Below, piece by piece: positions 3,232-59,038 of a stretch of 64,000 nucleotides of DNA (within the stretch, counting starts at the first letter, position 1; every line of letters starts with the position of its first letter). Source of the stretch: a virus (Duplodnaviria > Caudoviricetes); the IMG/VR virus record IMGVR_UViG_3300002220_000322, positions 38,860 through 102,859 of that record; one strand, given 5' to 3'. The notes beneath the pieces are model-generated. The model did no database searches, had not been told where the DNA came from, and saw only the letters and a list, made by a program, of their open reading frames with translations. A program made the translations under genes and the position numbers.

Positions 3232-3232
3232 T

Positions 3233-6200
3233 ATGGCATGTGAATATGAAATAGCCGGAGTTAAAAATAGTTTAAATTTTGGAGAAGTAATAAAATATTA
3301 TTATAAATCTACTGGGTTACTCGCTAATACTAATATATTTAGTAGTGAGGAAATAGTAGCCAGTGTTTATAGTAGAATACAAAAACAATTAGATAAACAA
3401 AATTTAAAACAAGAAGTATCAGATGATAAAGAAGTATTATCTAAGGGCAAAGGTAAGGTGGCTGTATTAGATTATATTACAAGTCAAAATAATACTGATG
3501 TATATAAAAAAATAGGGTTAGATAAAGATAGACTAGTACCAGAATATAATAAGGATAATTATATATTAAATGAGACTAAAAGAAGGATAAGACAGGATGG
3601 TTTTCCTGCTCCTGAAAAAGACTCTTTAAAAGATATTTTGGAAAAATATCCACAGGCTTCTAAATATGTATCTGAAATAGAAGAAGAAATATTTATAGGA
3701 GAACAAACTAAGAATCTAAGTTTAGGTATCCATAATATACTAGCTAGGATATTTAGAGAAGAAGGAGAAGTTAGTGATTATACCAGAGGAATGCTTCGTA
3801 AATTAATAATAGACAATCAAGATTATTTACATGGAGATATTGATTTATGAGTAGATAAATTTATTTCTATATTTGATAATTTATATGAAAAGATAACTGC
3901 CAAAGGAGAGAGAGTATTAACTGAAGTAGTATTAGAATCAGAAGAAGCTGCCCTAGCCCAAGTAAGGGGTAAAATAGATATACTAACCATTGATAGTTCT
4001 GGAAGAACTCATATATATGATATAAAACTATCAAAAGACCTATATGAAGATTGAAGCTCAGAAAGAATTTTACAAACTGATTATCAATTAGCTTTTTATA
4101 GAGCATTATTAGGACAATATGTAAAAACTGACGATGCAACTCTAAATATAATACCTATTAGATTAGGAGGACTAAATGCAGATAAAAAAATAGATGTAAA
4201 TAATCTAGTATTGGATAAGATAGTAGATAGACTTTCACAAGAGGGGGGTAAAGGATTATTAGTAACAGGAAGGATTTATAAAACAGCTAGATTATTAATA
4301 CCCAGTACTACTGAACTATTTTATGATCCAGAAAAGATAGAAGAAGTTAAATCAGATCTATCTCTTATATTTAAAGACTATAATATAAAAACCTCTGGAA
4401 GTGATTATGATGTAGAAACTTTGCTGGATAAAGCAGTAAAGCAACAAGGAATAACTATGTTTCTAGAAGGATTTGAAGATCCTAGAGCACATATAAGAAA
4501 TAATAGATTATTTATAGATCATAAAGTAGGGGATAGATATAAGACGGAAGAAGAATTAAGGATAGAATATAGACCTATAATAGAAAAGTATGTAGCCTTT
4601 GCAAAAATGTCAGAAAACAATAATGTATCTCAGTTAATGCAAAAAATAATATCTTCTATTGATAAAAATGGGGAAACAATACAGATGATGAATCCAAGAG
4701 ATCAAATTATAGTAAATAATATAGCTCATCAATATATAAATGGAGATTATGATGTAGTCAGAGGTTCAGATGAGTTAGTTTCTTTAGGTATTATATTATT
4801 AAGAAATAAAAAATATGGATCCTATGTACTATTAAATATATCTTCCCATAATCAAAAGGATAATTATGATAATAAATGGTTATATAGAGATGTAGATTTT
4901 ATAAAAGCAATGGCTTTTTTAAATAGATACCATAAAGACCTAGACTTAGATTTTAATAAAGTACAAGACATAATAACTTATAATCCTTTAGAAAACCAAA
5001 TATTTTATAAACACCTAGAGTCTGGTTTTAGAGAATTTGATGTTCTTATGAAAGAACATGGCCTAACTTTAAATTTAAAAAATTCACATATATTGCCAGC
5101 AGAAAAGAAAGCTTCTATAGAAATTAGGGAAGCGCAAAGATATATATCTAATAAATTGTCAGAGGGAGACAAGGCTTCACTAAAATCAATACTTGATAAA
5201 TATTCTGAGCAAATAGAAGACTTGACAGTAGAAAGACTGAAAAATATGGTTAAAGATTTTATAAAAGCTTTTCCTAATTTAGAAAAAAAATCTTTTGAGT
5301 CAGGATTTGACTTTAATAATCATATAGAATATCTATTCGGAATGATTAATACACTACTTCTAATAAAAGCTGAACAAATTCCTATGGGAGATTATACTGG
5401 ATTAAATAATTTTAATATTAATTTTTCAAGTATATATGATATATTTTCTGGCTTCTTTAAGAATACTAGAGAATACGACGCAAAAGAAAAAAGAATATTA
5501 TCTTTTATGGATGGTTTAAAAATGGCTACCCCAGATAGAATAGGATCTAAAGATTTACAGAATATAAATATAATGTTATCTGGTACTAACTCTTTTATTA
5601 GACAAAGTTTTTATAAACAATCTACTATCATATCTGGACTAACCAGGAAATATTATGATTCTATAAACTATACTAATTGAGAACAAAACTGAGTAGGAGA
5701 TCATAGAACAAAGTTTCAAAATATGTGATTTAAAACTAGTAATGGCAACATTTCTATGGAATGGAGAACTAAAAATCCATATTCAGATTCTTTGGAGGAT
5801 AGTATGACTGAATCGGAAAAAGAATATTTAAAAGGTATTCTCTTTGAAATGAATAAAAGAAAGTTAAATATTCCTAAATCAGAGTTAGATAAAGCAAATA
5901 TAACTACTCTGGAAAGCATGGAAAAAACTATGCCAAGTACTTATCAGAAAATAGTTAAAATGATTGCTGATAAGACATATTTTAAAATGCCCTTAGTTAG
6001 ATCTCAACAAATAGGAAGACATACTTCAGTAATAAGAAAGGGATATGCTCATGCTGTTGATGTTTATAAACAAGAAATGTATAATTCAATAGACTCAAGA
6101 GAATTAGAATCTGATGAAATAAGGAGTCTAAAAGAAAGATTGGGATATTATGAAATGTATAATATTTATGATAGACAGACAGATAAGTTTAAAGAAGAGG

Positions 6201-7876
6201 CTATAGAAACCAAAGGGATAGATTATTTTGAGTTAGATTTAGACGCTATAAGTCATAGACTTACTTTTAATCAAATAAGAAAAGCTCATTTAGACAACAT
6301 TCTTCCTGTTATAAATGCTTATACGTGATGGATGAAAGTACAATCTGGAAAAGCAGGGGAGGATATATCAAAAGAGCTAGAACATGTAAAAAATAGAATA
6401 AAATTAGCTGCAGCAGATGAGTCTATAATAGACCCAGAAGCAGAAGATGTAGTACAGGCAGCTACGGTTGTTAAAAAAATAACTACTGCTGGTATGTTGG
6501 CTTTTAGACCAGCTCTATTTTTAAAAGAGATGACTATAGGACTTTATAAGGGATCTATGCTAGCATTTACTAAAATATACGGAGGAGAAGAACAATTTAC
6601 TATATCAGATTTAGGAAAAGCATTAGGAAAACTAGCAACTATAGATAAAAAATTTGCTAGAGAATGAAATATGATTGATGGAATAAATAATGAATATGGT
6701 TTTGCGAATAGAGACGTAAACTCCTTAGCCCCAAGACTTCAAAGTAATAGAAGGGGTCTACATATGGGCTTAGGTCCGTGAATGTATATTATGAATACTG
6801 TTCCAGATTATTATAATAGATTAGCATTGCTTTTAGCTAAAATGATACATGATGGTTCTTATGATGCTCATGGATTAGACAAAGACGGATATTTGACTTA
6901 TGATCCTAAGAAAGATAAAAGATTTTCTTATTATTTTGAAGTTAGAGATAAGTATAAAGCTGAAGAAGGAAGTGTTGTTAAGTATAAGTCTTCTAATGCA
7001 GATAAATTATATAATAAACAAAAAAGCTTATATAATCTCCTAACAGACCAACTAAACTCTGAAAGAATAAGAATGGGATATGAAAAGTTTAGTGAAGGAG
7101 ATATTGTAGATAAAGCTTATTCTGAATTAGAAAGATCAAGTTATAAATCTTTTGTAGACGGTGTTTATGGATATTATGATGTGGATTCTCAATCTGAAAT
7201 ACATAAAACATGGTATGGAATTTTATATTTACAATTTTTACAATTCTGGCCAGGTAAAATGAATATGTGATTTGCTAGCTCTAAGAAGAAGGGAGTAACT
7301 CCTACCGGAAGATTTGAACAAATGAGTAAAGAAATTGATGGGAAAAAAGTTTTACTTTGAAGAAGAGAAGTTATAGACGAGGAAACTGGAAAAATTACTG
7401 GTTTTGAAATTACTGAAGAAGATACTGGAGACCCTGCATATGAATGAGTAGGTACACCGCAAGAAGGATTGGCTATTGCCCTAATGATGACAGCTAAAGA
7501 TATAGTCACTTTTAATTGAAGTAACATAAAATCTGATGATTTAAGAACTAGAAGAGCTTTATATGGACTTTCTGATGGCTTATTAATGCTTATATTTTTT
7601 GCTATTATTTCTAATTTATTGAAAGCATATAGAGAAGAAAATGGGGATGATGGTATAGACGGAGAAACTATAAGATTTATAGATGCTGTCAATGATAAAA
7701 TATTAAATGAAGCTAATATTTTAGATAATACTTTTGGGGCACTAAGATCTAAACCTGCTTTTTGAACTTATAGTACCAGAGTAGCTGGTAATGTAATAGA
7801 TGTAATAGAGGGAGACAGAACAGCAAAACAAGCTTTAGCTAAAAATATAAGAGCATTTGAATTTTTAGAAGAATAA
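3233..7876 (+). CDS. 1547-aa giant protein (TGA=Trp) with an internal PD-(D/E)xK nuclease-like domain
   Basis: One frame from ATG 3233 to TAA 7874 with 13 in-frame TGA and no TAA/TAG. Motif GKIDIL..HIYDIK..YQLAFY at ~3968-4100. Confidence 0.85.
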
Positions 7877-10832: not shown

Positions 10833-11105
10833 TTATTTTAAATTTGTAAATACAGGGTCTGCCTCAGATATTTCAGGATCATATATTGAAGCTGTTGGAT
10901 AAACCCCAGTGGAAGGAATAGGAGAATCAGAAAGGGTACTTTCTATAATCTCTAGATATCCAAATTTTATTTTTTTAGAAAATTTACTTTTAGTATAAAC
11001 CTCCTTTAATAAAGATAAAGCTTCTTCTTTATTACTGGCCTCAACCTGTACAGGAATTTGTACTGTAACAATCCTGTCTTCTTCGCAAATAAATTTATAT
11101 ATCAT
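10833..11105 (-). CDS. hypothetical protein
   Basis: ORF overlapping the ligase stop. Confidence 0.5.
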   Translation of the reverse strand: MIYKFICEEDRIVTVQIPVQVEASNKEEALSLLKEVYTKSKFSKKIKFGYLEIIESTLSDSPIPSTGVYPTASIYDPEISEADPVFTNLK

Positions 11106-12273
11106 ATCTTATTGTTTTAAATACTGGTTGCATAGGAACTCCTCCGTCGCTTAAGGTAAAATACTTTACATCTCCCATTTTACCAATAATACTATCCATA
11201 CAATCTATGTATTCTTCTTTTTCTTCCCTACTACCCATAGGTTTAGCTTCAAATAATTTTCCGTTTTTGGCTTTTAAAACAAAACAAAAATCCTCTGGTC
11301 TCAATCCCTCTTTATAGTCTACTATCTCAAAACTATCCTCTAAATAATCTTTTACTTTTATCCAATCGGAATTTCTTTTTCCTGGCTCATATTTTTTATG
11401 GGGCTTTCTAGCAACTAGTCCTTCAAATCCTTCTGAAACAAATTTATCATGGTATTTTTTAATATTATTCCATCCTTCTAGATAAATATGTTCTACTATC
11501 CTAATACTGGATTCATTTTCAAAATATAATCCCAGGTCTATAAGATCATCAAGTCTTTCATTAAAGTATTTATTAGTATCAACTATATCAAACACCCAAA
11601 ACTCTAATTTATTACAGCGATTTTCCCAGGTTTGTAATCTAGCAGCTCCAGATATTTTTTGTAGAGACCACCCATGAACATAGAGTTCTCCGTCTAAGGC
11701 TATGCCTGTATTATTTTTTAAATACTCTATTAATAATTCATTATTTCTTATGTGAGAGGTAGCAACATCATAATTCTTACCTCCTCTACTTATAGAAATA
11801 ACTTCTCCTTTATCTTCAGACCACTTAAATAAACACCTTACTCCGTCAATTTTTCTGCTACAGAATAGCCCCTTATTAAAAATATTAACAGAACAATCAT
11901 TAGAAGATTTTGCCAACTGGGGCTTTATATTTCCTTCTTGATCTGTTTTTATACTAGGAACTATTGTGTTTAGTTCGTCTTGGGTAATTACATTAAATTT
12001 AGTAGTAGTAAGATTTGATAACTTTTTATATCCCTTATCTAAAGCTTTATTTATTAAAGAATTAAACTCTAATTCAGCCTGCATAAATACAGACCTCTTA
12101 GCTTTACCTCTTTCTATTGTCTTAGTTGGCTGTTCTGTAAATTTTCCGCCAAATTGTCCAGTATTTCTTCTTATATAATAAGTATTACCTTCCTGTTCTA
12201 GAGTAAAAATAGCTACTTGAATTTTATCTCTAGCATTTCTGGTAACCAATACAACTTCATTTTCTACTATCAT
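11095..12273 (-). CDS. ATP-dependent DNA ligase
   Basis: KIDGVRC, LDGELY, FDI, EGLV and WIKVK motifs. Confidence 0.93.
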   Translation of the reverse strand: MIVENEVVLVTRNARDKIQVAIFTLEQEGNTYYIRRNTGQFGGKFTEQPTKTIERGKAKRSVFMQAELEFNSLINKALDKGYKKLSNLTTTKFNVITQDELNTIVPSIKTDQEGNIKPQLAKSSNDCSVNIFNKGLFCSRKIDGVRCLFKWSEDKGEVISISRGGKNYDVATSHIRNNELLIEYLKNNTGIALDGELYVHGWSLQKISGAARLQTWENRCNKLEFWVFDIVDTNKYFNERLDDLIDLGLYFENESSIRIVEHIYLEGWNNIKKYHDKFVSEGFEGLVARKPHKKYEPGKRNSDWIKVKDYLEDSFEIVDYKEGLRPEDFCFVLKAKNGKLFEAKPMGSREEKEEYIDCMDSIIGKMGDVKYFTLSDGGVPMQPVFKTIRYDI

Positions 12274-13659
12274 TACTTAATTCCGCTATCTCCAAAACCA
12301 GTTAATCCTCTTGTACTTTCCGGAAGAGTTTCTACTTCCTTCCATTCTATTGTTTCAAATTTAGATAATACTGCTTGTGCAATTCTATCTCCTTGTGCAA
12401 TCTCAAATACTTCCTCTCCTAAATTAATAAGTATTACTCCCCAAAAATTTCTAAAACCCATTTTGTTATCGTAAAGACTCTTTATTCTTTACCTCTGCAA
12501 TTTCATTTGTTATAGTTGCAGTTCAGACTATATCATCAGTAATTACTTACTGCAAGGCGCTCGTGTTAGTATCATCATCCACAGCATTGTCTGTTGGGAT
12601 TAAACTATTAGTCGTTGAACCTTCAAAGATATTACTATCTAAGCTTGGCTGCTGATTGTCTACTTCTAGATTTTCCAGCAATTCACCTTGTTTTAAGACG
12701 CCAGTTATATTATGCAATATTGTATGTTCTGATCTAGTTAAAATTTGTAAATTATCTAATCTATTGTCCGATTTAATTTCATTAATATGATGAACATCAT
12801 AATCATCCTTTAATACATAAAAGTTATTTATAAGTTCAAAGTATTCTTTATTAAATAACCTATAATTTTTTTCTATAATTAATCTATGTTGTCTAATTCT
12901 TCCATGTGTATTACACTTAGGATGATTTGGACAATATTCATAGATATAATCATGATGTATTATTTCTAGTCCTTTATAAGAATTATTAAGTTCTCCTTTT
13001 AAACCAAATTGATGATTTCCTTCACCAGACATATAATTAGATTTTAATTTACTTGCACAATTAACTGAACAAGTAATATCATTTTTTACTCTTTTTATTC
13101 TAGATTCTTTTAAATACATTTTTATACCACACACCGCACATTCACAGTTTGGTGTTTTATTAAATTTCTGCCATTCTTCATAACATTTATATGAACAAAA
13201 TTTAGCAGGAAACTTTTTTGTATTTATTACATAATCTTCTTTTTCACAAATTTCACATTTCATAACTTTAGATTTTTAATTATATCCAAAGATACGAATT
13301 ATTATCATGAAAAATTATAAAATTTAGAAATTTGTGAATTAATCCTGGAACCGTTGTTTAGCGTCTATAGTACCAGGTGTATTAAGTACAGTTACTCCTT
13401 CTTTAACAGCTAAACCACTTCTTGGTCGTATCTGAACTTCAAATCCTTCAGGGACAGCGGCCATTATATTAGTAGGTACTAATGCCCTACCTCCTGGAAA
13501 GATAAGTAAAACCTGTCGATCTGAGTCAAAGTCAGAAAAATGGAACCATTTATCTGAAAGACCTCTAGAAAAATCTGCTCTAAGATCCATACCAGCATCC
13601 CCCGGATTAGTATATTTTGGTAGTTCGTTATTACTTTTATTTATTACAGGTATTTGCAT
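12273..13659 (-). CDS. dut: dUTPase, spliced (exons 13659-13360 and 12458-12273; 161 aa)
   Basis: AGMDL, RPRSGLA, GTIDA|GFR, RIAQ and RGLTGFG motifs are restored by removing the intron. Confidence 0.92.
12459..13359 (-). mobile_element. group I intron in dut
   Basis: Exon ends in U, intron ends in G. R element GTTCAACGACTA and S element GATATAGTCT present. Confidence 0.9.
12547..13263 (-). CDS. intron-encoded HNH homing endonuclease
   Basis: Zn-ribbon repeats and [20 protein letters not shown]. The C-terminus overlaps the intron core. Confidence 0.9.
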   Translation of the reverse strand: MKCEICEKEDYVINTKKFPAKFCSYKCYEEWQKFNKTPNCECAVCGIKMYLKESRIKRVKNDITCSVNCASKLKSNYMSGEGNHQFGLKGELNNSYKGLEIIHHDYIYEYCPNHPKCNTHGRIRQHRLIIEKNYRLFNKEYFELINNFYVLKDDYDVHHINEIKSDNRLDNLQILTRSEHTILHNITGVLKQGELLENLEVDNQQPSLDSNIFEGSTTNSLIPTDNAVDDDTNTSALQ

Positions 13660-20354: not shown

Positions 20355-20680
20355 TAAAAAGTTTCGTATACTATGGTATCCATTTTATTTTCTAGAAAAG
20401 CAAGAGTTTCTGAAGTTATCCAAGGATATTCTGAAGTATCTTTAAGAACAGATAATTCATAATATAATGAAGAAAATCCATCTTCGTAGCCTTGTTTTAG
20501 TCCTACATAAGACCCTTCCTCAAATCCTTTATTGTAATACTCTACTGCAGAAGTAGAAATATCCTCCATAAGATCATTAATTTCAGGTTCTAATTCTTGT
20601 AACAATTTAGAAGAAAGGTCATAATCATCCTCTTCATATCCAAAATGTTTATTTAAAAATGAGGAAATAATATTAATCAT
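20354..20680 (-). CDS. hypothetical protein
   Basis: ORF in operon. Confidence 0.55.
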   Translation of the reverse strand: MINIISSFLNKHFGYEEDDYDLSSKLLQELEPEINDLMEDISTSAVEYYNKGFEEGSYVGLKQGYEDGFSSLYYELSVLKDTSEYPWITSETLAFLENKMDTIVYETF

Positions 20681-21098
20681 TTAAATAAGTTTTTAATAAT
20701 TCATAAAAAAATTCTTTGGGAATTATAGCAAATTCCCCCATTGAAGTAATATTTACATTACCTTCTTTTTTTTCTTGAGCATTTCATATAATGCATAAAG
20801 GTTTATCAAGTTTTCCTACCTCAGTATTTAATTTTTTAATACTAGGAGTAGTTTGAGTTTTTTTAAGTTGAAAATAACAAGGAAGAATTTTATCTTCGTC
20901 ATTTATATCTATTTTCATATCATCTAATTTTTTACTAGAAGATCTTGAGGTTGATATGTTTTCATTGCCTGTTAATTCTTTTAACTCATTAACTATTTGT
21001 CTTTCGTAAGCATTACCTTTATTTTTACTATAAGAACCTGCCTTTTTCTTTTTAGGCTTTTCTTCTGTTCATTCTTTTTCTATTTGTTTCTTTGCCAT
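20673..21098 (-). CDS. Hjc-like Holliday junction resolvase, 141 aa, two in-frame TGA (absent from the ORF track)
   Basis: MAKKQIEKE*TEE..KNKGNAYERQIVNEL..KIDI..FQLKKT..LCII*NAQ. Fills the gap between its neighbours exactly. Confidence 0.8.
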
Positions 21099-21100
21099 AA

Positions 21101-21298
21101 TTATTTCATCCATTCTGTAAAACCCTCTTCAATCGCTTCTAGGGGAGAGAGAGTTGGGTTAAGTTTCATAAATTTTAAAGCTGAAAATATCACCTCTATA
21201 TCTAATTCCTCTTCTCTAGCTATATCTATAAGTTCCATAATCTTATCATATTGTTCTGCGTCCCTCATACCTATTTCATCAAAAAATAAAAAATTCAT
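21101..21298 (-). CDS. hypothetical protein
   Basis: ORF in operon. Confidence 0.55.
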   Translation of the reverse strand: MNFLFFDEIGMRDAEQYDKIMELIDIAREEELDIEVIFSALKFMKLNPTLSPLEAIEEGFTEWMK

Positions 21299-23041: not shown

Positions 23042-23584
23042 TTATAATTTAAAAGTTAATTCATGTATCTCTGTTGTGTCATCATCTTCAGTTAATAAAT
23101 CTGGTTCTATGTTTTCAGCCATTTCTTCAACCTGCGCTAAAGTTTTAGGTTCTGTAGACTCTAAAAAGAAGATTCCAGGTTTAAATTCTTTTAATTTAAA
23201 GGTTGTGCCATATTCTGCTAATACAGTATTTGCTTTACCTCTGTAAGTAACTGTATTTGATTTAGTTACTTTATTACCAGATCCCTCTTCTTCAAAAGAA
23301 AGATCTGATCCTATAATAGGAAGTCTAGTCTTGCCTACTTTTTCGTACTTGATAATTATTCTGTCCTCTGGCTTAACATCTAGATCTGCTGCACATTTAT
23401 TATTAAGTACTAACTTATTATCTTCCCTAATTAAAATAGCTTCATCTTCCATAACTATTTCTTTAGTGGGGGCTTTTTTAGTAGTTCTTTTCTTTTTTTC
23501 TATACCATCTACAAAGGTAGTAAGGTTAGAAACTAATTCGGTTTCTGGATCAAAATCGAATGTTACTGTTACTTGTTTAATCAT
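23042..23584 (-). CDS. hypothetical protein
   Basis: ORF in operon. Confidence 0.6.
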   Translation of the reverse strand: MIKQVTVTFDFDPETELVSNLTTFVDGIEKKKRTTKKAPTKEIVMEDEAILIREDNKLVLNNKCAADLDVKPEDRIIIKYEKVGKTRLPIIGSDLSFEEEGSGNKVTKSNTVTYRGKANTVLAEYGTTFKLKEFKPGIFFLESTEPKTLAQVEEMAENIEPDLLTEDDDTTEIHELTFKL

Positions 23585-25472
23585 TTAATGAAGGATAAAT
23601 ATTTTCCCAATAAGCAGTTATCTTGCCGGTTTCATTATCTTTAGAAGTCAACCTTAAGGTTTTTCCTGACAGGTGGGGCATTCTAGCACCACAAAGAACA
23701 GAATTCATATCTCCAAAATTAGCCATCAAATCCCCAGTTTCAATGTCTCTATAAACATAGCAGATGGCATCACTGGAGGCACTTAATATTCTACCTAATT
23801 TACCTGTTAAATCTAAATCTTTAACATTTAATTCTGTACCATTTTCATTTAAAGCTTTATCTTTTACGTGACCTACAAGAATAATATTAGGACATACTTT
23901 AGTAAACCAGCTAATTACATTTTGAATAGCTTCCCTAACGTATAAATACATTTTGTTAACTTACACTTTCATGTAAGATCAGACTATATCTTTAATTTTT
24001 TGTATGTGAATAAATATACCCATTATTTAGAATTTTATCCAATTTATAACGTAATCCTTCTTTTTTAAAACCTTCTTGTAATTCACAATAGCTTCTGGAA
24101 TGAAAAGTTTCTATAAGATTATAATCTTTATCATATTTATAAACCCTTTTTGCTCTAGCATTATTTTTACTAGCTTTTTCTTTTCATTCTTTAGATTTTT
24201 CTTTATTTTTAGCTCAATGTTGAGTTTTATAATCTTTACATGGATCATATTCTTCTTTATAAAGAAATACATAATCTTTTAAATAATTTAAAGTATGTTT
24301 ACATACTTTAGATATATTTGATGTTGTTATATCATAAAATTCAGCTGCTTCTGAAATAGAATTAAATTCTTTTTCTAGTTCTCCAGTAAATCTATTTACT
24401 GAAACAACTGCTTTACCTCTTGCTTTTTTAAAGTTTTCTATTGCTTCTTCATTTTGTTTAAAATGTACATAATTAAGACAAATATCTGTCATATTATATC
24501 CATTTTTAACACTATTATACTCTTTAATATATCCTTCTTCTATTTTTAACAATTCTTTTCTTTCTATACCATCAGGATAGAAATCAAAAATAATTATCTC
24601 AAAATTATCTTCTCCATGTTTATTTCATGAATTTTGAAGTTTTGTAGAATGATGTCTAGATTTTTTTAAATAAGTATAATGTCGTTTTAATCTCTTTATA
24701 ATAGATTCTGCTGAACCTATATAAATTTTGTTAGAAACTACATTTTTAATTCCATAAATTCCCGAATAACTTGGTAACTCTTTACAATTTTTAAATTTTA
24801 TCATTTTATTTAGTTTAAAATTTTACTTATGTAAAGTTACAAAAAATTATTCTAACTTTTCCCAACATACAAATATTGTTAGTATTTATATGTAAGTACT
24901 CCCCTGCCGAGGATAGTCGTTGAACCTTCAACCAAAAAAATTAATTTTTGGAAGCTTGGATGCGGATTTCCCAATTCTTTTTGATTTTACTATACCTTTC
25001 ATCGTTACTGAAAGCCATTATATATATTACTACTATAATTTAGTTAAAAAGACTCTAAGGGGTTTCCCGCAGTTAGTTAGAAATGAGCTATTAAATAACC
25101 CGCACCATTAGGAAGTTTAAGAATGTTTGCATCAGGACTAAAATTTACTCCCATTGGAGTGTCTCTATATAACTTATTTGCATAAGGAAGTACAATATCT
25201 TCTAAAGCTGTAATAGTATCAAGTATCACAAAATCAAATCTGCCTGGATTTTCTTTTAAAGCTTTAGCTATTTCAAATAATTTTAGGTAGCTGTCAGCCT
25301 TAACACTGTAAGCTTCAACATAATCTGTACCATCTTCTAAGTCAATATGAAGAGCTTTTGGTAAAAAAGAAAGAGCTGTAGTCTTTCCACACTTAGGCAA
25401 TCCAAAGATTATGAGATTTTTGGGATTTTCTGTTTTAATTTTAGTTTTTTCTTTTGGTAACTCGAAACTCAT
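23577..25472 (-). CDS. Sak4/AAA_24-like P-loop ATPase, spliced (exons 25472-25098 and 23948-23577)
   Basis: GLPKCGKTT, IDLEDG, ILDT and LVGH. Junction PNGAG|YLYVREA. Confidence 0.85.
23949..25097 (-). mobile_element. group I intron in the ATPase gene
   Basis: U|...G boundaries; R element near 24915 and S element near 23985. Confidence 0.88.
23992..24804 (-). CDS. intron-encoded GIY-YIG endonuclease, 270 aa, three in-frame TGA
   Basis: SGIYGIKN..YIGS..RLKRH..LQNS*NKHGEDNF, with NUMOD1-like repeats. Ends at TAA. Confidence 0.85.
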
Positions 25473-28400
25473 TATAATATAAATAAATTTTTAGATTCTT
25501 CTTCATCTTCATCACTCTTATAATCTAAATTTAAATAAGGCTCGTAATCTGATATAAGTTCTGGTTTAGGCAATTCAATAAACATACCAACCTCACCATA
25601 GAATCCTAATCCCTTATTAACGTCTGCCTGACCATATCTATTCTTAAGTAATTGACAAAGTCTAAATCTTTTCTTTAATATATTTTGAATAGGATATCCT
25701 TCACACCTGGCAATTTTTTCTCTATAGGGATAATATAAAGCTAATACAACGTCAGAGCCGTCAGTAGTACCAGAAGTATCTTTAAACACTATGTTATCTT
25801 GTAGGCTCTTTATCCTACAAATCTACACTTTTATATATATGTGTAGGTCAGACTATCTCTTCAATATCCTTTAAGTATTGATATACATAAGATATTGCTC
25901 CGCACTCGTGGGCCTTCATCTTCTTCAACATCACTTGTTAAGAAGGTATGACCTAGTCGTTGATCCTTCATTGTATTTCTACAAAGCTTGGATTAGGGTT
26001 ATCCTGTCGGACTTTCCCAGATTCACGAAGTTTAATGATGACTTTTATAATTTATATTTCATTGATTCAACAATATAAGGTTCGATTAATTTTTTAAAAG
26101 CTAATTTACTATCAGATAAAACATATAGACCATTTTGAGAATTAATAGAAGTATTAATATTAAATTTATTATATAAAACATTTTGTATAATATCCAAATC
26201 TTCTTTAGAAAAACTATGTGTACATAATAAATAACCTCCATAATCTTTATATTTACTTCCATCATCCATATACCAAATCGCAAGTCCAAGTGCTTCTATT
26301 TTCTCAAATAAATTTTTATTAATATATTTTACTTTATTTTTATAAAACATATCATAAATATTATTTAGTGCAGGATTTGAATTTATATACCAGTACCATT
26401 GTTTATAACTAGGATTTTGTAACCTTTCATCGTACTTATCTACAAGGCGAGGTTTCTTAGAAATATTTTTTAAATAATTATATTTAGTAAATATTAATTC
26501 TTCTTGTTCTAAACAATGATTGCAGGTTCCGGTGCAATCTCCATTATTATACCTTCTATATAAATGTGTATCTCCTAAAACAGTTCCTAACAATACTTGA
26601 AATTCTATATCAGTTAGAGGAATAACTTCTTTCTTTTCTTTATGAGGAGGTAAAGAAAGTTTATTTCTTCTTTGTATAATATATCCTACAGATGTATTTA
26701 ATTTTATAGAAATTTGTTTATCTGATAATTCTAAATTATAAAATTTTAAAAACTCTTCATTAGTAAAATGTCTTCTATCAACTTTAGCAAGATTTAAAGA
26801 TTTTCTAAAAAATCTTATTTTATCTTCTGAACAGTTGAATTCTCTTCCTATTTCAAGATCTGACATTTTTTTATTATAAAAAGTTAAAAATTTTTCTTTA
26901 TCTATTTTTTCGTAATTAGCTTTTGAATTAGATTTTAGATTTAATTTTTTACATCGTCTACTAGCCTGTGCAGCAGAAATTCCTGTTTCTCTGCAAATTT
27001 CGGCTTGAGTTAATCCTAAACTATGTAATTTTATAAACTCTTCGTCTGAAATAATCTTTCCTTTTTTTGTTGTTTCCATATTTATTAATTTTATTTTTAA
27101 CAAATTTAATAATTTATTTTTATAAAAATTAATAAATTTAAAGAAATATAAGTTAGGAAGTTCATAACTTTATTATTTTAATTCCTAACATTTTCTCTAT
27201 CATCAAGCTGATACAGTTCATAACCAGAAGTTTTTCTTTCCACTGATTTTGAATTTCTATTCATTTGTTGTATAAATACCCCAGTTAATCCACATTTATT
27301 TCTAAAATAAATTGCATAATCTACTGTTAAATCTATACGTTCTTTTTTGGTTCCTTGTCCACTTATTAAACCAACGTGGTCCCATAAAGCTACTTTATAG
27401 ATTTCAGGATCAAGTTCAACATAATCTTCTCTGTGGTCATCTATTTGTACAAAAGTTCCAAATCTTTTTAACCATTCTTTTAAAGTAGCATAAATACCAT
27501 TAGGATTTAATGATTTATCATAAATAGTTAAATGAGAGGCTATATCTTCAAGCCAAGGAATAGATAAGTCTACTAATTTTTTTTGTTCTTCTGATATAGG
27601 ACTTATAAGAGAAAGAATATCTTTATACGTAACAATTACACTATATTCATCCCAAATATGCCTAGATAATAGTTTAGCAAATAATACATCACTAGACATT
27701 TCAAAAGAATAATATAAAATATGTATTTTTCTATCTCCCCTATTCTTTAATAAATTATATACAAATATATCTAAAGCAAAACTAGTTTTACCCGTTATAT
27801 TGCGAATATACCGATTCCGTATATTCTCTCATACTTTCACATGAGACTAGACTATATCATCAAAGAATTGCTTCTTTGCCATCAGCTTCGAGTTCTCTTG
27901 AACTCTACTCCCTCTCCAGGGATAGTCGTTGAACCTTCTCCATATCATAAGACTTAGGAGCTTGGCTGCTGATTGCCACATAATATAATATTTTTAAACA
28001 TTTACGTTAAGAATTTCTTCATTCGTTTTAGTTATTATATCTTCGCGGGTTCCCAGCAATTCAAATGGTTTGCTATCATAAATGATAGGGGCTTTTATTT
28101 TAAAACAAAAATATCTGTTTTTAAATATACTTTTATTATTTATACAGTTTGTTATAGTAACTCTAGAGTTTGTATTTAATCCAATAGCCTCAAGAAAAAT
28201 TGAAATACTGTCAAAAAAAGAGTATGTTTTTTCAATTATATCTTGAACGACTAAAGTACTTCTCTTTTGAGGAGCTCTTGCCCAAATAAATTCTATTGGC
28301 TCAAATGACCAATATGAATCAAAAGCAGTAGTAGTCTTTCCTCAAAGATTTCTTTGTATAACAGATGTTGTGTTATTTGGAGTATTATAATGCCTATTTG

Positions 28401-29118
28401 CATCATTTATTACTTCTCATTCCTTAATAAGTTCTCCAGTAAATCTGTTATATTGATAACATTTCTTTGTATTAGTTTTTTTAATTAATCCTAACTCTCT
28501 TTTTTCTCTGAGAGTATTATTAATTTTTTGCCTAACTTCTTCTGAAATAATACAAGTATTTGCAATACAAGATATATTATAACAAATGTTATCAAATCTA
28601 TTGTCAATTTTATTAAAAAACTCTTTAGCTCCTAAGTTGTCTAAATAATTTTGCTCTATATCTAATAAATTTTTTACGTCACATTCTTCTAAAATAGAAA
28701 ATTTAAAATTGTCTTCTCCATACTTATTTCAAGCATTTTGAAGTTTTTTATTTTCATGTTTATTATGACGTAACAAAGCCTTGTGTTTTTGTCATCTTCC
28801 TTTTATATTTATAGAAGATCCAATATATGCTTTATTATTTACTGTGTTTAAAATTTCATATATTCCTATCATATTATTAAATTTATAAGTTATACAAATT
28901 TAACAAATGTGGATGATATAATCAGCAAAAGTATATTAATAAATAGTTAATTTATTGTTAAAAAATCATTAACCCGAGCTATCTGCTCCAATAGTATAAA
29001 GATATTTTCTCTGGATTCCATAAATAATAGAATCAATAACAGGTAATCCTGTACTTATTCCAATATTTTTTCCAAGACCTCCTCTCTCAATATTATGTAA
29101 TAGATTCTTAATTCCCAT
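25472..29118 (-). CDS. DnaB-like replicative helicase, three exons (29118-28972, 27792-27199, 25786-25472; 351 aa)
   Basis: Walker A GADSSG|GKTS, YSFEMS, WDH, QQMNR and QLDD|FKDTSG..DVVL, LLKNRYG. Confidence 0.88.
25787..27198 (-). mobile_element. group I intron 2 of the helicase
   Basis: U|...G boundaries; R element near 25955 and S element near 25855. Confidence 0.88.
26045..27079 (-). CDS. intron-encoded LAGLIDADG endonuclease with N-terminal HTH repeats
   Basis: LLGTVLGDTHL and LAIWYMDDGS. Start set at METTKK, downstream of the promoter box. Confidence 0.88.
   Translation of the reverse strand: METTKKGKIISDEEFIKLHSLGLTQAEICRETGISAAQASRRCKKLNLKSNSKANYEKIDKEKFLTFYNKKMSDLEIGREFNCSEDKIRFFRKSLNLAKVDRRHFTNEEFLKFYNLELSDKQISIKLNTSVGYIIQRRNKLSLPPHKEKKEVIPLTDIEFQVLLGTVLGDTHLYRRYNNGDCTGTCNHCLEQEELIFTKYNYLKNISKKPRLVDKYDERLQNPSYKQWYWYINSNPALNNIYDMFYKNKVKYINKNLFEKIEALGLAIWYMDDGSKYKDYGGYLLCTHSFSKEDLDIIQNVLYNKFNINTSINSQNGLYVLSDSKLAFKKLIEPYIVESMKYKL
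27793..28971 (-). mobile_element. group I intron 1 of the helicase (inside Walker A)
   Basis: U|...G boundaries; R element near 27925 and S element near 27855. Confidence 0.9.
27994..28872 (-). CDS. intron-encoded GIY-YIG endonuclease, 292 aa, four in-frame TGA (absent from the ORF track)
   Basis: MIGIYEILN..YIGSS..R*QKH..LQNA*NKYGEDNF. Confidence 0.87.
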
Positions 29119-30242: not shown

Positions 30243-32667
30243 TTAAAGTCTAAATAATAGCGGACTTTCTTCCGCAGTAATTTCTGGATTATTTGTAATT
30301 TTTCCATCTAATAATTCATATAATTCTGCTTCAGTTATTTCTATATAACTTTTACCAGCAGTAGAGGTACTGTACCAAGACTCTTCATTAGTATTTTTGA
30401 TAACCAATGTAAATATCTCAGATTCTTTTCCTTCTTCATACCTTATAACTCTTCCTACCCTTTGAGTCTTTTGGGTTTTAGATGAGGTATTACAAAGGAT
30501 AATTGCTAAATTTAATCCTTTTATATCTACTCCCTCATCTAAACTCTTAGCAGTATGAATAACTCCCCTATCTAATTTAGAAAATTCTTCTATTGTTAGT
30601 CTATTTTTCTTTTTAGTTTTACCAGAATGAACAACAAAACCATTTCCTATTTTTTCTGCTTGTTTAATAGTAGCTGAAAAAGTTATTGCTTTACTATTAG
30701 GTCTAGAAGAAAGAATTTTCTTAGTAATTTCTATTTTTTTAGGGTGCTCCATAACAAACTGTTTTCTAGCTTTTAAAGACCTTAACCAAGAAAATGTTAT
30801 ACCATCTAACTCTTTAGCTCCTACTCCCATAGTTTTGGCATATCTTCTTCTGTAAATGATGTCAGTTACACATTTCATAGCCAGATTAAAATCATAATCA
30901 AAAAATGCAAAGGCCTCATTAAACTCTCTATTATACTCATAATAAATATGAATATCATCGACTTCTAATAATACTTTGTATTCTTTATATTGTGATAACC
31001 AATTATTTTCTGTAGCCTCTTTAACAGTAATAACATCACATACTGGACAATATTTAGAAAGTAAAATTTCTTTTCCATCCAATCTATTAAAAGTAGCAGA
31101 TAAACCTAAAACTAAAGATGGATTTTTTGCTTTAAATATTTCATGAAAAAGATCGGCTGCATAACGATGTACCTCATCAAGTATAATAAAGTCTATTTTT
31201 TCATTATTTTTAACAGCAGAATTTATTATCTCAACTTTTACATCAAAGTACAAGCCAGCTTTAGTAAGAGCTTGTAGCCATTGAATTTTTAAATGTTCTG
31301 TAGGAACAACTACTAAAATTTTAGTATTAATATTTTTAGTAAGATATCCCTTAATAGCCATAATAGCAGCAAAGGTTTTCAGTTATGTTATCCATAAGGC
31401 TTTTTATCCTTATGTTCTATAAATTCTTATTCTTTATAGCTCGGCGTACATTTTCACCTGTTCTAGGTGTTGGGCACTCTTGGAGAAATTATATTTATTC
31501 ATTCCCTACGCTCTACGATGATAACTAGCCTTTCGCAATCTAGTTATTTATCTCGGTATTAACCTCACAGCCTTTACCGATATTACCCAATAATAATTTA
31601 CTAAATTCCTTTAGTAAACGGCACTAAAAGGAATAAATTCTTTTGAAAAATAAATTTTATAATCTGAATTTTTTATATAATATGGATTATCTTTAGTAGC
31701 ATCAGTATGTTTATTTAAAGTAGATCTACTACTATTAACATAATCTGCACATTTTTTAATATCTTTATGATATTTAATATTTCCTAAAATATCTTCCGAT
31801 ATTAAATATTCTTTACTATCAGAATTACTAATCCTATATAAAAGATTTTTACATATATAATTTTTTGCTTCAATTTCAGAATTAAATAAATTATAAGAAA
31901 TACAATATTTGTTTTTATAAATTGAAGTATCTATTTTTTCTTTAGTACTATATTTAGTATTTAATTCTTTAAATGCTTCATTTAAATTATTACATTCCTT
32001 ATATAATAAAAATGTTTCTATATCATATATATAACATTTTTTCCAATTATGATTTTGTTTATAAGTTGTTATTTCTCCAGAATTGTATTTTTCTTTTAAA
32101 GTGTTAGATATTTTCTTTTTTTGTTCATCTGTAATGACTCTATTAAGATTTGCTATTACTTCATCTGAAAAATTATATTCTGGATTAATAAAATTTATAT
32201 AATCTTGTTCTCTAGTATATCTAGAGTTTTCATCACAAAATTCTAAAACAAAAAACATAAATTTATTTTCTCCATGTTTATTCCACGATGATTGTAAATG
32301 TTTATTATGTGATTTATTGTTTTTTAATAAACTTAAATGGGTTCTTAATCTGTCATATAAGTTTTTACTAGAACCAATATATCTTTTTCCATTTTCAACA
32401 TTCATTATACAGTAAATTCCTGACTTTTCATTTAATTCAATTTTTATATCCATATTTAATTTTTATTAATTTTTGTAAAATTACAAAAATATAATAAATA
32501 AAAACTATAAATTTTTATAAATATTAAATAAATGGTTTAAATCAGATTTATTTACTATACTGGTACCATCACACAGCACCTACCCCGGTACTCCAAGCTA
32601 AAGTGCCCCTACATCCAACATTAATCCATTTTTGAAGTCCTAGTTTTTGTCTTTCTGTTCTATCCAT
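30243..32667 (-). CDS. SF2 (UvsW/XPB-like) helicase, spliced (exons 32667-32578 and 31379-30243; 408 aa)
   Basis: STGVG|KT, VPT, DEVH, LSAT, LDEGVD and QRVGRVIR. Confidence 0.9.
31380..32577 (-). mobile_element. group I intron in SF2 helicase Walker A
   Basis: U|...G boundaries; variant core CGTAGAGCGTAG / AATGTACGCCG. Confidence 0.85.
31611..32453 (-). CDS. intron-encoded GIY-YIG endonuclease (no TGA)
   Basis: SGIYCI..YIGSS..R..H..LQSSWNKHGENKF, Trp encoded by TGG. Confidence 0.9.
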   Translation of the reverse strand: MDIKIELNEKSGIYCIMNVENGKRYIGSSKNLYDRLRTHLSLLKNNKSHNKHLQSSWNKHGENKFMFFVLEFCDENSRYTREQDYINFINPEYNFSDEVIANLNRVITDEQKKKISNTLKEKYNSGEITTYKQNHNWKKCYIYDIETFLLYKECNNLNEAFKELNTKYSTKEKIDTSIYKNKYCISYNLFNSEIEAKNYICKNLLYRISNSDSKEYLISEDILGNIKYHKDIKKCADYVNSSRSTLNKHTDATKDNPYYIKNSDYKIYFSKEFIPFSAVY

Positions 32668-33566: not shown

Positions 33567-34030
33567 TCCCAGGATGAATATTTAATTACTATTTTTTTCT
33601 CATCATCATTTACAACTTTTAATAGATCTTCAAAATTTTCTTCAAAATTTCTTCTATTTATAAATATCTCATCGTAATTATCACTATCTAAAGTAAAATC
33701 ATAATCAAGAGGTAATATAATATCTGTTAAAGAGTAAATTTCTATTAACTTATGTATATAGAAATCCTTTAATGTAGGTTCTTCATAGAAAATATCTACT
33801 ATCCAATATACTACTAAAGCTAATTTCTTCTCTAAAGTATCACAATTAAGAGTATATCCAATACCATCACTATAATATACTACATAGTTTAATAATATTT
33901 TGGTGTTTAATACACCTTCCTTTAATATAGTATTGTCTTTGTTAATTATGTCCTCAATAGTTATACTATGGGAAGAACTAGAATTAGTTTCAAAAATTCC
34001 ATTTCTTATTGTTTTCATTAATGTACCCAA
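33563..34030 (-). CDS. ETNSSSSHS-motif protein coupled to the radical SAM gene
   Basis: IRNGIFETNSSSSHSI N-terminus; ATGA overlap. Confidence 0.65.
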   Translation of the reverse strand: MGTLMKTIRNGIFETNSSSSHSITIEDIINKDNTILKEGVLNTKILLNYVVYYSDGIGYTLNCDTLEKKLALVVYWIVDIFYEEPTLKDFYIHKLIEIYSLTDIILPLDYDFTLDSDNYDEIFINRRNFEENFEDLLKVVNDDEKKIVIKYSSWE

Positions 34031-36350
34031 TAATTTCCTTGTTTACTACTTGCTTTAAGAGGTACAGTTTGACAAAAAGGCTTTCCTCCTTCTTCCATAC
34101 AATGTATAGTTAATTTAGAAACCTCTTCTGCCATTTCTTCTGGACACTCTATCAATAATTCATCATGAATAATATTCACAATTTTTACAATATTCCACCA
34201 TCCTCTATTTAATATTTCTTTAAATAATAAAATAGCTCCATACTTTGTTATATCGGATGACGTACCCTGAATAGGATAATTTTGACTCATGCGCTGAATA
34301 TCACTTTTACTTTTGTTAAAATTTCTAGACTTTTCGCCATATTCTGGATCATAATACTTATTATACCTATCCTCCATATATTCTTTATATAGAAAATAAT
34401 CTGTAGTATCCTTATTGAAGAAATATTTTCTTTTAGTTACTCTATTAAATTCTATATAACCCTTTTTAGAAGCTTTGTTAAAAACCCAGTCAAAGTATTG
34501 TTTCATAACAGGAAAAGATTGAAAATAAGAATTATAAACAAACTCTCCGTCTTTTTTTGGTATATTACAGTTTTTAGCTATAGTAGCTCCATTTCCACCA
34601 TATGCTATCGCAAAACCCGCAGCCTTAGCTATTTGGCGTTTATTTGCATGATTTTTAGCAATAAAATCTAAAGCTTCTTTAGATACTTCTTCTATAGAAC
34701 ATATCCTTAACTGTGGATACATTAAGAAAGCTATATAAGAATGCATATCTTTTAAACCCTTAGCATAAAATTTAATTAATCCAGGTTCTTTACTATGGTT
34801 GGCTAATACTATTGTTTCTTGCAAGCCTAATCAACTTGGACTTTCTCTTTACCTTAGAATATAATTCCTTAGGTATACCGTGTAAAGTCTCTACACCTTC
34901 TTAAATTAAATTTAAGCTTGGCTCGGGATTGGAGGTTGCGATCTCTTTCCCCGAATTTACGGTAACTAACTTAGTAAATTTCTCTACTAAGGGGCCAAAT
35001 TTTTCATATTTTCTTTTTAAAAAATATGACGCATCTTTATAAATTAAATTTTGAAATTTATAAATATCTTTTTGTTTATATATTAAATTAATAATATACA
35101 AAGATAAGAAAATTTATCCAGAAATCTGCTTTATAACAAAATTTAATTTGATTAGTTATTTAACCACTATAATCAGCATCAATCATAATACACCCCTTCT
35201 CTGGAACAAAACATCCCCTAAACTCATAAGTAGATGGTATATTTTGCATATTAGGCTTGTTTTCCCTCTTATCTCCACTACTTAGTCTTCCAGTATCCAT
35301 TAATTGTTTGTAAGAGGTATGTATTCTGTTAGTTACAGGATTTATATAATTTTTCCAATTATATCCATAAGTACTAATTTCCTTTTGAACTTCCTTATAT
35401 TCTAAATAAGGAGTTAAAATAGGAAAATCTTTTTTTTGGGGAGATAATACTTTAGCATCAATAGATTCTTTTTCTTCTCCTCTTTCTTTTATTATAGTAT
35501 TAATACCATAACTTTTAAATAAAGAAGTTACTTGTTTAGGAGAATCCCAATTAATAACAACTTCTCTTTTACCAGTCCAAAGATTTAACATAGGAGATAA
35601 AAATTCTTCTTTATTGTCGTTATAAATAAACTCGTCTAGAGCTTCTTTCATAACTTCAACTTTAGAAATATTATTATCTGTATTTAGTTTCCATTTATTG
35701 TAATCCAATTTTATACCACAATATTCTATATAGGCTAAAACAACAACAAAGGAATTATCTAAATTTAAAGCTCCTAAAAGATCATTCTCATGTATTTGTT
35801 CTAGTTGTTTTTCTTTTATTAATGGTAGATATTTTACGTCTTCCGAGGAATAAAGTAGAACTTTATCACTTAATCCTTTAGTAATTATATCCCCCCTTAC
35901 ACTTTTATCTAAATGTACACCACAATATTTAAAACAAATAGTTTCCAAGTCCCTACCACTATATTGCAAACCATTAGTTAAAATAATTTCTGCTAACATA
36001 GTATCATATACATTTTTTATAATAACATCTTGTGTAAAAAGAAATTTTAAATCAAATTTTGCATTCTGTAAAATAAATAAAGTATCAGTGGTATTTAGAT
36101 AATTTTTAAGGGTAATAGGAATTTTACCTCCATAACTATTTATATCAAATAATATTTGAAAATCATAATTACCTAGTTGAAGTAATAAGAGTTTTTTAGT
36201 GAATGGATCTAAACCTTCAGTTTCAGTATCCAATCCTAATTCTTGGTATCCTTTTAATAACTCTATAGAATCTTCTAAAGGTATTATTTTATATAAAGAA
36301 GAATCATATAGAGTTATTTGATTAGTAACTAAATATACAATATTAGACAT
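34018..36350 (-). CDS. polA: family A DNA polymerase with 3'-5' exonuclease, spliced (exons 36350-35163 and 34821-34018)
   Basis: DTET, NAKFD, TGRLSS, motif A DADYSG|QE, motif B RQIAKAAGFAIAYG, NYPIQG and motif C IHDE. Confidence 0.93.
34822..35162 (-). mobile_element. group I intron in polA motif A with a LAGLIDADG remnant
   Basis: U|...G boundaries; core GTGTAGAGACT / AAGAGAAAGTCC; fragment IYKDASYFLKRKYEKF. Confidence 0.85.
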
Positions 36351-36609
36351 CTTGATCAACAGGCTCAACGAAATAATCTATGGCATCTTCTCTTTCTTGG
36401 TTATATATCTCCATTGCCACCTCATAAGAAACATCTTCTTCTTCCATAATATCGTCTATTGTTCTAAAAGGATCTATATCATATTCAGCCATAGCGGCAT
36501 TTATTGCTATCTCTACAACATCTATAAATTCTCCTTCAACTTCTCCATGACAAGGAAGATCTACGTCTTCTCCCTCATATTTTCCTCCGTAAATAATATA
36601 TTTTCTCAT
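36343..36609 (-). CDS. acidic hypothetical protein
   Basis: ORF in operon. Confidence 0.55.
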   Translation of the reverse strand: MRKYIIYGGKYEGEDVDLPCHGEVEGEFIDVVEIAINAAMAEYDIDPFRTIDDIMEEEDVSYEVAMEIYNQEREDAIDYFVEPVDQDV

Positions 36610-41812: not shown

Positions 41813-41831
41813 ATAATCATTTTTAAATTAG

Positions 41832-42220
41832 TAGCAAGGACGGGAGTTGAACCCGCATCGAGTGGCTTCACATTTGTGTATATTTCTATACTCTGTGGAC
41901 TATATCATCACCCTCGTCTTTACGTTAGGGTGGTGAGTACTTAATCTGGTTATTAAGAAGACTTTACTTCTCCAGTAGTCTCTACACCTTCTGAAAGTGT
42001 ACTTTCAGCTTGGCTCGGTATTGTCATATCAATTGACTTAGATTCTACCGAATTCACTCACTTTTTCAATAAATCTTTCGATTTAAAGTCACTATTTTCA
42101 AAAATAAATAATTCTGGATTGTGTTCTTCTGCGTGACAGTTAAAACATAATAAATACATTCCTTTTTCATTTACTTTTTTTCTAATGAGACCCTCCAGTT
42201 ACCATTACTAGCACCTTGCA
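41832..42220 (-). tRNA. tRNA-Met(CAU), initiator-like, split by a group I intron
   Basis: Exons 42220-42185 and 41868-41832; acceptor TGCAAGG/CCTTGCT with a 1:72 mismatch; imperfect anticodon stem. Confidence 0.75.
41869..42184 (-). mobile_element. group I intron immediately 3' of the CAU anticodon, with an HNH remnant
   Basis: Core GTGTAGAGACTA / GATATAGTCC, terminal G, and fragment LLCFNCHAEEH. Confidence 0.82.
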
Positions 42221-42224
42221 TGTG

Positions 42225-46198: not shown

Positions 46199-46202
46199 TT
46201 TG

Positions 46203-46570
46203 TGGACTAGGTGGGAATTGAACCCACGTATAGATCAGTTTACAACGTTAAATCTTTTTACATGCTTAGGTTTTAAGAGTTTCCTTCTCTTTGGGACTGC
46301 CGAGACAGCCGCTCCACCATCTTATTTTTGAGAAAACAAGAAAAAACAATATTGATTTCTAATGTTATTTAAATCCTAATAAATCAACAAATTTGGGATC
46401 ACTAAATTCTGTTCCAAAGTTTTAGTACTCGAGAATTTCTTAAGCTGCAATAGCCATAGAAGTTCTAGCTTGTAAATTAATTACTTTGCCGTTTAAAATT
46501 AGTACAAGGCTCTTCAGCACGTTGCATGAATTTAAAATCTTCTTCCTGCCTAGCAAAACCAGTCTAGCCC
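46203..46570 (-). ncRNA. ssrA: tmRNA; tag (A)GKVINLQARTSMAIAA*
   Basis: GGGCTAG/CTAGTCC acceptor with G3:U70, T arm, TAAAC before the resume codon, tag ORF 46490-46440 ending in AA. Confidence 0.9.
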
Positions 46571-58985: not shown

Positions 58986-59038
58986 GTTAAAAAATGTTTA
59001 AATTGTTAAAAAAATGTTAATGAATTATAAATAATTCG

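Follow-up and report, generated by a model that had tools for sequence, protein, structure and literature searches.

How is an endonuclease gene with in-frame TGA codons read when it lies inside a gene that is itself written in the standard code? The question is raised by two homing endonuclease genes of the GIY-YIG type, here HE1 and HE2, on the minus strand of IMG/VR virus record IMGVR_UViG_3300002220_000322. The DNA examined (the window) makes up the right-hand 64 kb of this 102,859-bp contig (GC 28.7%), that is, its positions 38,860 to 102,859, and coordinates below are those of the window. HE1 interrupts an AAA_24 ATPase gene and HE2 a DnaB-like helicase gene, both within a block of early replication genes. 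We propose, at a probability of about three in four, that the phage works in two codon regimes, that HE1 and HE2 would be made at full length only after a late switch of TGA from stop to tryptophan, and that their TGA codons arose in place from TGG.

Tryptophan at the TGA codons of HE1 and HE2

The open reading frame (ORF) of HE1 (23992 to 24804, minus strand) comprises 270 amino acids, with three TGA codons and no TGG. HE2 (27994 to 28872, minus strand) comprises 292 amino acids, with four TGA and two TGG. A paralog, HE3 (31611 to 32453, minus strand, 280 amino acids), contains two TGG codons and no TGA. All three lie above the Pfam cut-off of 22.6 bits for GIY-YIG (PF01541), with 38.1, 47.3 and 46.9 bits for HE1, HE2 and HE3, respectively. 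The in-frame TGA codons are codons 60, 197 and 207 of HE1 (24625-24627, 24214-24216 and 24184-24186) and codons 27, 48, 152 and 177 of HE2 (28792-28794, 28729-28731, 28417-28419 and 28342-28344). Translation with table 4 runs through both genes without a break, and table 11 fragments both; it is confirmed that they are intact solely when TGA is read as an amino acid. In the alignment of the three paralogs, the GIY and YIG motifs and the active-site residues R38, E89 and N101 (Arg, Glu and Asn; HE1 numbering) are invariant. Towards the C-terminus, HE1 resembles the NUMOD-like domain of I-HmuI at 20.6 bits, under the cut-off of 27, and no Pfam match to a C-terminal DNA-binding module was obtained for HE2; NUMOD1 is present in many homologs.

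The same alignment contains a single invariant tryptophan column. It falls within LQNS-W-NKHGEDNF of HE1 (TGA at 24625-24627) and LQNA-W-NKYGEDNF of HE2 (TGA at 28729-28731), opposite LQSSWNKHGENKF of HE3, where tryptophan is spelled TGG. The initial annotation had quoted these motifs, with a stop in place of the W, as identifying TGA as tryptophan from the window alone. The motifs are found as written and the amino acid is right, but the argument within the window amounts to two of the seven TGA codons, as the alignment has only this one invariant tryptophan column and the remaining five TGA codons do not stand opposite tryptophan in the paralogs. The case becomes strong with homologs from outside the window. 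In a set of 120 HE2 homologs, 98% have tryptophan in the column of codon 48 and 62% in that of codon 27. No other columns of the family are as rich in tryptophan, and TGA is not scattered at random with respect to conserved tryptophan. The column of HE1 codon 60 holds tryptophan in 70% of 61 homologs and tyrosine or phenylalanine in the rest; at codons 197 and 207, tryptophan is confined to the closest orthologs.

Closer comparison gives the same assignment. Three HE2 orthologs from IMG/VR (70-76% identity) keep all six tryptophan sites and exchange TGA and TGG at three of them. The more distant orthologs at the same intron site in the relatives L022-L024 (56-58% identity) are readable with table 11. 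Their tryptophan sites are TGG in 17 of 17 cases, compared to TGA in 19 of 24 in the four orthologs of the recoded clade, and each of the six sites is TGG in the three TGG-only orthologs and TGA or TGG in the recoded clade. HE1 behaves alike. Its close orthologs (72-77% identity) likewise require TGA to be tryptophan; at codon 60, five close orthologs have TGA and two distant ones TGG; TGA and TGG replace one another at codon 207, and only the close clade has tryptophan at codon 197. For these two genes, the earlier claim that intron endonucleases adopt the recoded codon is thus borne out. Code 25, in which TGA is glycine, was considered and rejected: one column pairs GGA with TGA, yet every conserved column indicates tryptophan. 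Judged by comparison of related sequences, TGA is tryptophan in HE1 and HE2.

Codon regimes and host genes

The contig is linear according to IMG/VR and 59% complete (CheckV). Its replication proteins are nearest to those of crAss-like phages, at 43-48% identity; the closest match of the AAA_24 protein is in cr4_1 (Suoliviridae), and those of the family A DNA polymerase (PolA) are in cr108_1 and IAS virus. The genomes of more distant relatives measure 155-167 kb. The window stems from part of a large crAss-like phage, probably one of the Zeta type with its many introns; TerL, portal and MCP lie outside the fragment. The contig is organized in two blocks. One, on the plus strand and referred to as late, codes for giant virion and cargo proteins; it extends from upstream of the window to position 7876, and the part inside the window (1 to 7876, plus strand) contains 17 in-frame TGA codons read as tryptophan. 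The minus-strand block, referred to as early, carries replication and nucleotide-metabolism genes and a tRNA array.

The two blocks differ in how they spell tryptophan. In the 88 minus-strand ORFs called with table 11, we counted 186 TGG codons, and the stops are TAA (65), TAG (14) and TGA (9). One of the nine TGA stops belongs to the HE1 fragment. The other eight are real gene ends, at 9471, 14984, 33563, 40150, 40557, 57091, 62624 and 62803 (minus strand), and late read-through would add only a short tail to these genes, as the next TAA or TAG follows 0-12 codons downstream. Apart from HE1 and HE2, in-frame TGA occurs in the early block only in a RusA-like Holliday-junction resolvase (20673 to 21113, minus strand; phrog_244), which has two TGA and no TGG. 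The 17 ORFs of the late block contain 96 TGA and 43 TGG codons (69% TGA), and every one of them ends in TAA. Early genes use the standard code, and late genes spell most tryptophans as TGA. HE1 and HE2, with seven TGA and two TGG between them, bear the late-gene signature though they are nested in early genes (Fisher p = 6e-10 versus the early block, p = 0.72 versus the late block).

That TGA means tryptophan in the late block as well is indicated by the gene at 3233-7876, in which 12 of 13 TGA codons are opposite tryptophan in six homologs; across three genomes, 8 of 10 shared tryptophan columns mix TGA and TGG. The closest annotated phage, cr4_1, proved too distant to serve as a late-gene reference, with just three TGA codons pairable. 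PHROGs gave almost no matches for nine late proteins, and a search for related loci with a late protein found none, the patterns containing tryptophan probably assuming TGG. A late protein sought in the early-block fragments G001, G002 and G003 gave no match. The standard-code relative described below was reached by walking along contigs and then through IMG/VR.

HE1 lies within the 1149 nucleotides that separate the two exons of the AAA_24 gene (Sak4-like). Exon 1 (25098 to 25472, minus strand; Pfam AAA_24, phrog_124) and exon 2 (23577 to 23948, minus strand) join into an open frame of 249 amino acids, and the cr4_1 protein aligns across both, residues 4-130 with 25460-25092 and residues 129-243 with 23948-23595. 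The predicted group I intron spans 23949 to 25097 (minus strand), with the 5' part of the ribozyme at 24805-25097 and P7' and P9 at 23949-23991. A search of 331 nucleotides with the Rfam model RF00028 (Intron_gpI; gathering score 50 bits) returned a partial match at 24914-25071 (25.8 bits, E 1e-4), covering model positions 60-148, P4-P7. The core motifs AAGGTTCAACGACTA and GATATAGTC are present, a P7' motif and a P9 hairpin lie 3' of the ORF, the last base of the 5' exon is U (25098) and the last base of the intron is G (23949).

HE2 lies in a predicted group I intron at 27791 to 28972 (minus strand; boundaries within 1-2 nucleotides), which splits the Walker A codons of the helicase between SSG and KTS. 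Here, RF00028 matches 27828-28000 (E 5e-12) and just reaches the gathering score, with 50.0 bits; the search window cuts the 5' end of the match. The ribozyme core is located 3' of the ORF, in the 203 nucleotides after it, and partly overlaps the 3' end of the ORF. It is nearly invariant in four orthologs, and a P9.1-like hairpin after P9 covaries. HE2 shows almost no variation in its last 25 residues, which overlap what is likely the P3-P5 region of the ribozyme, and the first base of the intron is an invariant U in seven orthologs. Exon 1 of the helicase (28973 to 29118, minus strand) has 49 codons, ends in GADSSG and overlaps the stop of the upstream gene; it is conserved in four relatives with coding-type substitutions, and homologous ORFs of 54-59 amino acids are called in L022-L024. 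Exon 2 (27199 to 27790, minus strand; phrog_19, DnaB_C) is joined to exon 3 in L003 and L004. In the window, the two are separated by a second group I intron (25787 to 27198, minus strand) with a LAGLIDADG ORF at 26045-27103 (no TGA, three TGG; Pfam LAGLIDADG_2 1.6e-31) and a core motif at 25954-25968 with one mismatch. Its junction, between QLDD and FKDTSG, is placed from the relatives, with U ending the 5' exon and G ending the intron. Exon 3 (25472 to 25786, minus strand) is collinear with the relatives, and the spliced product has 351 amino acids. The LAGLIDADG genes of the relatives G002 and L025 do contain TGA.

The initial annotation had called the two endonucleases intron-encoded, and both are indeed found inside inserts that match Intron_gpI, in genes that are continuous in relatives. 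Removal of the introns restores ORFs collinear with uninterrupted homologs for AAA_24, the DnaB-like helicase and an SF2 helicase described below. Splicing itself is predicted, as are cleavage of the intron-less allele and homing, for which patchy presence among close relatives provides indirect support. Scans of the whole window with gathering thresholds and of 12 kb with E up to 10 returned no group I intron, and matches emerged only when 300-600 nucleotides were scanned; the long-range negatives were filter losses rather than absences.

The code of the relatives carries the argument on the origin of the TGA codons. In L025, a recoded relative on a 92-kb contig, the early genes with TGA are a GIY-YIG endonuclease (seven TGA, no TGG), an Endonuclease VII (three and none) and one gene of no known function (two and none). 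The early ORFs with multiple TGA codons in G001 and G002 include two LAGLIDADG genes, the HE2 ortholog and one ORF with a weak match to HNH, together with an adenylosuccinate synthetase and an AAA ATPase. Standard-code relatives differ. In G006 (160.8 kb, 99% complete), ten late ORFs of 624-2935 amino acids are free of TGA, 27 stops are TGA, there are three tRNAs and no suppressor, and the HE2 ortholog has no internal stop; in L033, 29 early genes, two LAGLIDADG genes among them, contain no in-frame TGA. The HE2 ortholog is present in one of four near-complete standard-code relatives. The spelling of the endonucleases therefore tracks the code of the resident phage, and as their counterparts at identical intron positions use TGG in standard-code relatives, the direction of change is from TGG to TGA. 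The use of TGA by the resolvase of the window, with its parallel in the Endonuclease VII of L025, fits a late function before packaging.

Timing of endonuclease production

By analogy with known systems, HE1 and HE2 can probably be made only late in infection. In both, the first TGA (codon 60 in HE1, codon 27 in HE2) would be met before the catalytic domain is complete. While TGA terminates, HE1 would stop after 59 residues and HE2 after 26, each yielding a short dead-end peptide; once the phage switches TGA to tryptophan, late in infection, the full-length nuclease would appear. Splicing would let the helicase and the ATPase be produced early, independently of the nuclease. TGG would have given rise to the TGA codons in place once the lineage changed its code. 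What we infer is that the meaning of TGA switches over time, that a suppressor tRNA absent from the fragment is the agent, and that late expression is beneficial. According to the initial annotation, production of the nucleases would be restricted to recoding. That is the consequence if early translation keeps to the standard code, a premise supported by the 186 early TGG codons, the near absence of in-frame TGA and the eight early genes ending in TGA. As to their proposed inertness in standard-code phages, endonuclease genes that bear TGA would be untranslatable there unless a recoded phage co-infects the cell.

A precedent for such a delay is I-TevI, a GIY-YIG endonuclease encoded in a loop of the group I intron of td, an early/middle nucleotide-metabolism gene of phage T4. 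Production of I-TevI is delayed to late infection, and td itself is expressed early through splicing. In T4, the delay is achieved by late promoters and by a ribosome-binding site that is sequestered in early transcripts, whereas the device proposed here is a codon that would be stop early and tryptophan late. The core motifs of the HE1 and HE2 ribozymes resemble the td type.

Several observations weigh against the proposal. The timing is deduced from gene position and analogy. HE3, the LAGLIDADG ORF and an HNH ORF in the same early block spell tryptophan with TGG only. Late gating is therefore not a general requirement, and either it is optional or these three are recent arrivals; the adoption of TGA claimed for intron endonucleases in general holds for HE1 and HE2 and fails for the other three. 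The TGA share of HE1 and HE2 equals that of the late genes, which neutral drift in a late-translated gene predicts as well. There is no tRNA with a UCA anticodon among the 19 tRNAs of the contig, and relaxed scans gave nothing credible; the recoding agent is unseen in a contig that is just 59% complete. Finally, the HE2 intron does not combine U before the 5' splice site with a terminal G: the single junction that fits all seven orthologs (the window, L002-L004 and L022-L024) puts G, not U, at the exon end, and the 5' part of the HE2 ribozyme and its guide sequence were not located, the match being cut on its 5' side by the search window. Two candidates from the tRNA search were set aside. A tRNA-Trp(CCA) with a 41-nucleotide insert (59038-59161, minus strand), called by ARAGORN in intron mode, did not match the Rfam tRNA model. 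A 'tRNA-Stop(tta)' at 62991-63074 (plus strand), called by ARAGORN at default settings, lies antisense within an ORF, has no Rfam support and was treated as a false positive.

Alternative explanations make the TGA codons of HE1 and HE2 either decay, the ordinary code of the organism, a by-product of late expression or an import. That the two ORFs are dead remnants with genuine stops, in introns that persist as the ribozyme still splices, would agree with their breakage under table 11 and with the common loss of endonucleases from introns. It is hardly credible. The pairwise dN/dS ratios of four close HE2 orthologs over the full length are 0.14-0.23 (at dS 0.37-1.1), and neither TAA, TAG nor a frameshift occurs in the 4-5 orthologs of each gene, in which the interruptions are TGA only and fall at tryptophan sites. 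The pseudogene reading fails on these grounds and is already contradicted; HE1 and HE2 are, as judged by these substitution patterns, intact endonucleases under purifying selection. A constitutive code 4, in which phage and host always read TGA as tryptophan and timing plays no part, would account for the lack of a suppressor tRNA in the contig. This is very improbable and likewise contradicted, as an organism at 29% GC would then spell most tryptophans TGA. The codon use of the early genes, with only the resolvase's two in-frame TGA codons outside the endonucleases, and the early TGA stops, which lie where gene length and overlap with the next gene predict them, exclude it.

The remaining two alternatives concern what was selected and where the codons came from. 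Under neutral drift, the lateness of HE1 and HE2 would have other causes, for instance late promoters or a sequestered ribosome-binding site as in I-TevI, and TGG would decay to TGA under AT bias (29% GC), harmlessly, so that TGA would be a consequence of late expression and not its cause. The TGA share of 7/9, which is indistinguishable from the 96/139 of the late genes, suits this view, as does the free exchange of TGA and TGG among close orthologs, typical of synonymous codons. We nevertheless regard it as unlikely. Whatever their origin, TGA at codons 27 and 60 would block early translation, so that the two readings differ only in what was selected; the early-block endonuclease of L025 has TGA seven times and TGG never; and the intron endonuclease family of Agate phages is enriched in TGA beyond other genes (Borges et al.). 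Recent homing of the introns, TGA included, from another phage with TGA as tryptophan or from a late-gene site has in its favour that such introns are mobile and patchy, as the occurrence of the HE2 ortholog in one of four standard-code relatives illustrates, and that the helicase site holds different endonucleases in relatives. It appears improbable, since the same endonuclease at the same site, all TGG and at 47-58% identity, in standard-code-type relatives points to an old association, and the TGA/TGG polymorphism inside the recoded clade speaks for turnover in place.

Returning to late gating, a broader and more tentative idea is that TGA as tryptophan may act as both timer and firewall for selfish DNA. 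Once the code had changed, resident endonucleases would have turned TGG into TGA and become translatable late in infection alone, and in no phages but recoded ones, which would confine their homing to the recoded clade, and the TGA share of an endonuclease would record its residence time in a recoded genome. HE1 and HE2 would then be old residents, and HE3, the LAGLIDADG and the HNH endonucleases recent arrivals from standard-code relatives. We consider this possible, though we lean against it for the present.

Further introns and known systems

HE3 is contained in an intervening sequence at 31380 to 32577 (minus strand). This insert separates the codons for TGVG from those for KT in the Walker A motif of an SF2 helicase, and its boundaries fit U as the last exon base and G as its own last base. 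The helicase exons (32578-32667 and 30243-31379, minus strand) give a spliced product of 409 amino acids, compared to 405 for the gene of L023. RF00028 matched neither the upstream flank of HE3 nor the ORF-less form of the element in G002, the downstream flank not having been scanned. At the same site, the element is ORF-less in G002 and holds a LAGLIDADG ORF in G001. The DnaB-like and SF2 helicases are unrelated, and both are split precisely between the Gly and Lys codons of Walker A (28973/27790 and 32578/31379); the two insertions look as if the most conserved codons had been targeted convergently.

The family A DNA polymerase gene is split into 35160-36368 and 34018-34824 and is unbroken in G001 and L023. 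Between the two parts lies an ORF-less group I intron (34826-35015, minus strand) with a full-length RF00028 match of 53.4 bits. In the region 12440-13263 (minus strand), the HNH ORF (12547-13263; 238 amino acids, no TGA, one TGG) runs into perfect group I core motifs (12609-12623 and 12526-12534) and lies just upstream of a DNA ligase-like gene at 11095-12273; this region is probably another intron. At 41830-42221 (minus strand), the 5' half of a tRNA directly after tRNA-Gly is followed by group I-like P7, P8 and P7' motifs and then by the T-arm and 3' acceptor half of a tRNA. When the halves are joined, ARAGORN makes tRNA calls, the best of them tRNA-Phe(GAA) and not a UCA suppressor; the 5' splice site is preceded by U and the intron ends in G, and this is possibly an intron-containing tRNA gene. 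As a whole, at least five introns occur in about 25 kb of the window, and so many introns cut core replication genes into fragments that resemble separate small ORFs. A transfer-messenger RNA match at 46200-46570 (minus strand) scores 50.2 bits, compared to the Rfam gathering score of 47, and has no ARAGORN call.

Such intron density, together with the 155-167 kb genomes of the relatives, is reminiscent of the Zeta crAss-like phages, which have genomes of 145-192 kb, dense group I introns and inteins, late stop-codon reassignment, and intron ORFs containing TGA that needs suppression (Yutin et al. 2021, PMC7886860). In the PolB example from that group, the host gene and its intron ORFs both carry TGA, whereas here TGA is found in intron ORFs only and the host genes are free of it. 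A 2025 account of the Zeta phage Lera names five homing endonucleases as well as ORFs in which TGA is suppressed.

The closest parallel for the timing comes from the Agate phages, in which the endonuclease of a self-splicing intron in an early standard-code gene prefers TGA for tryptophan, and in which in-frame stops should block production of the endonuclease until late infection (Borges et al., bioRxiv 10.1101/2021.08.26.457843). The idea of late gating is thus already published for another phage group, and HE1 and HE2 are a further case of the described phenomenon, with which they share the nesting of a TGA-spelled intron endonuclease in an early standard-code gene. The two cases differ in several respects. 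Agate phages have genomes of about 127 kb and belong to another group, whereas the present phage is crAss-like and has two separate GIY-YIG lineages in two genes, next to three further endonucleases of the same block that are not recoded. Here, moreover, orthologs from standard-code relatives display the TGG ancestral state directly, and this comparison at the same sites is the new element.

For annotation, a pipeline that assigns one code to each contig would break HE1 and HE2 or lengthen early genes. The locus illustrates cleanly, in a natural setting, how one codon can have two meanings in a single genome: TGA terminates eight early genes and stands for tryptophan in two genes that are nested in early genes. 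It extends to crAss-like phages the timing mechanism proposed for Agate phages, in which a codon that would be stop early and tryptophan late may hold back a homing endonuclease while its host gene is expressed.

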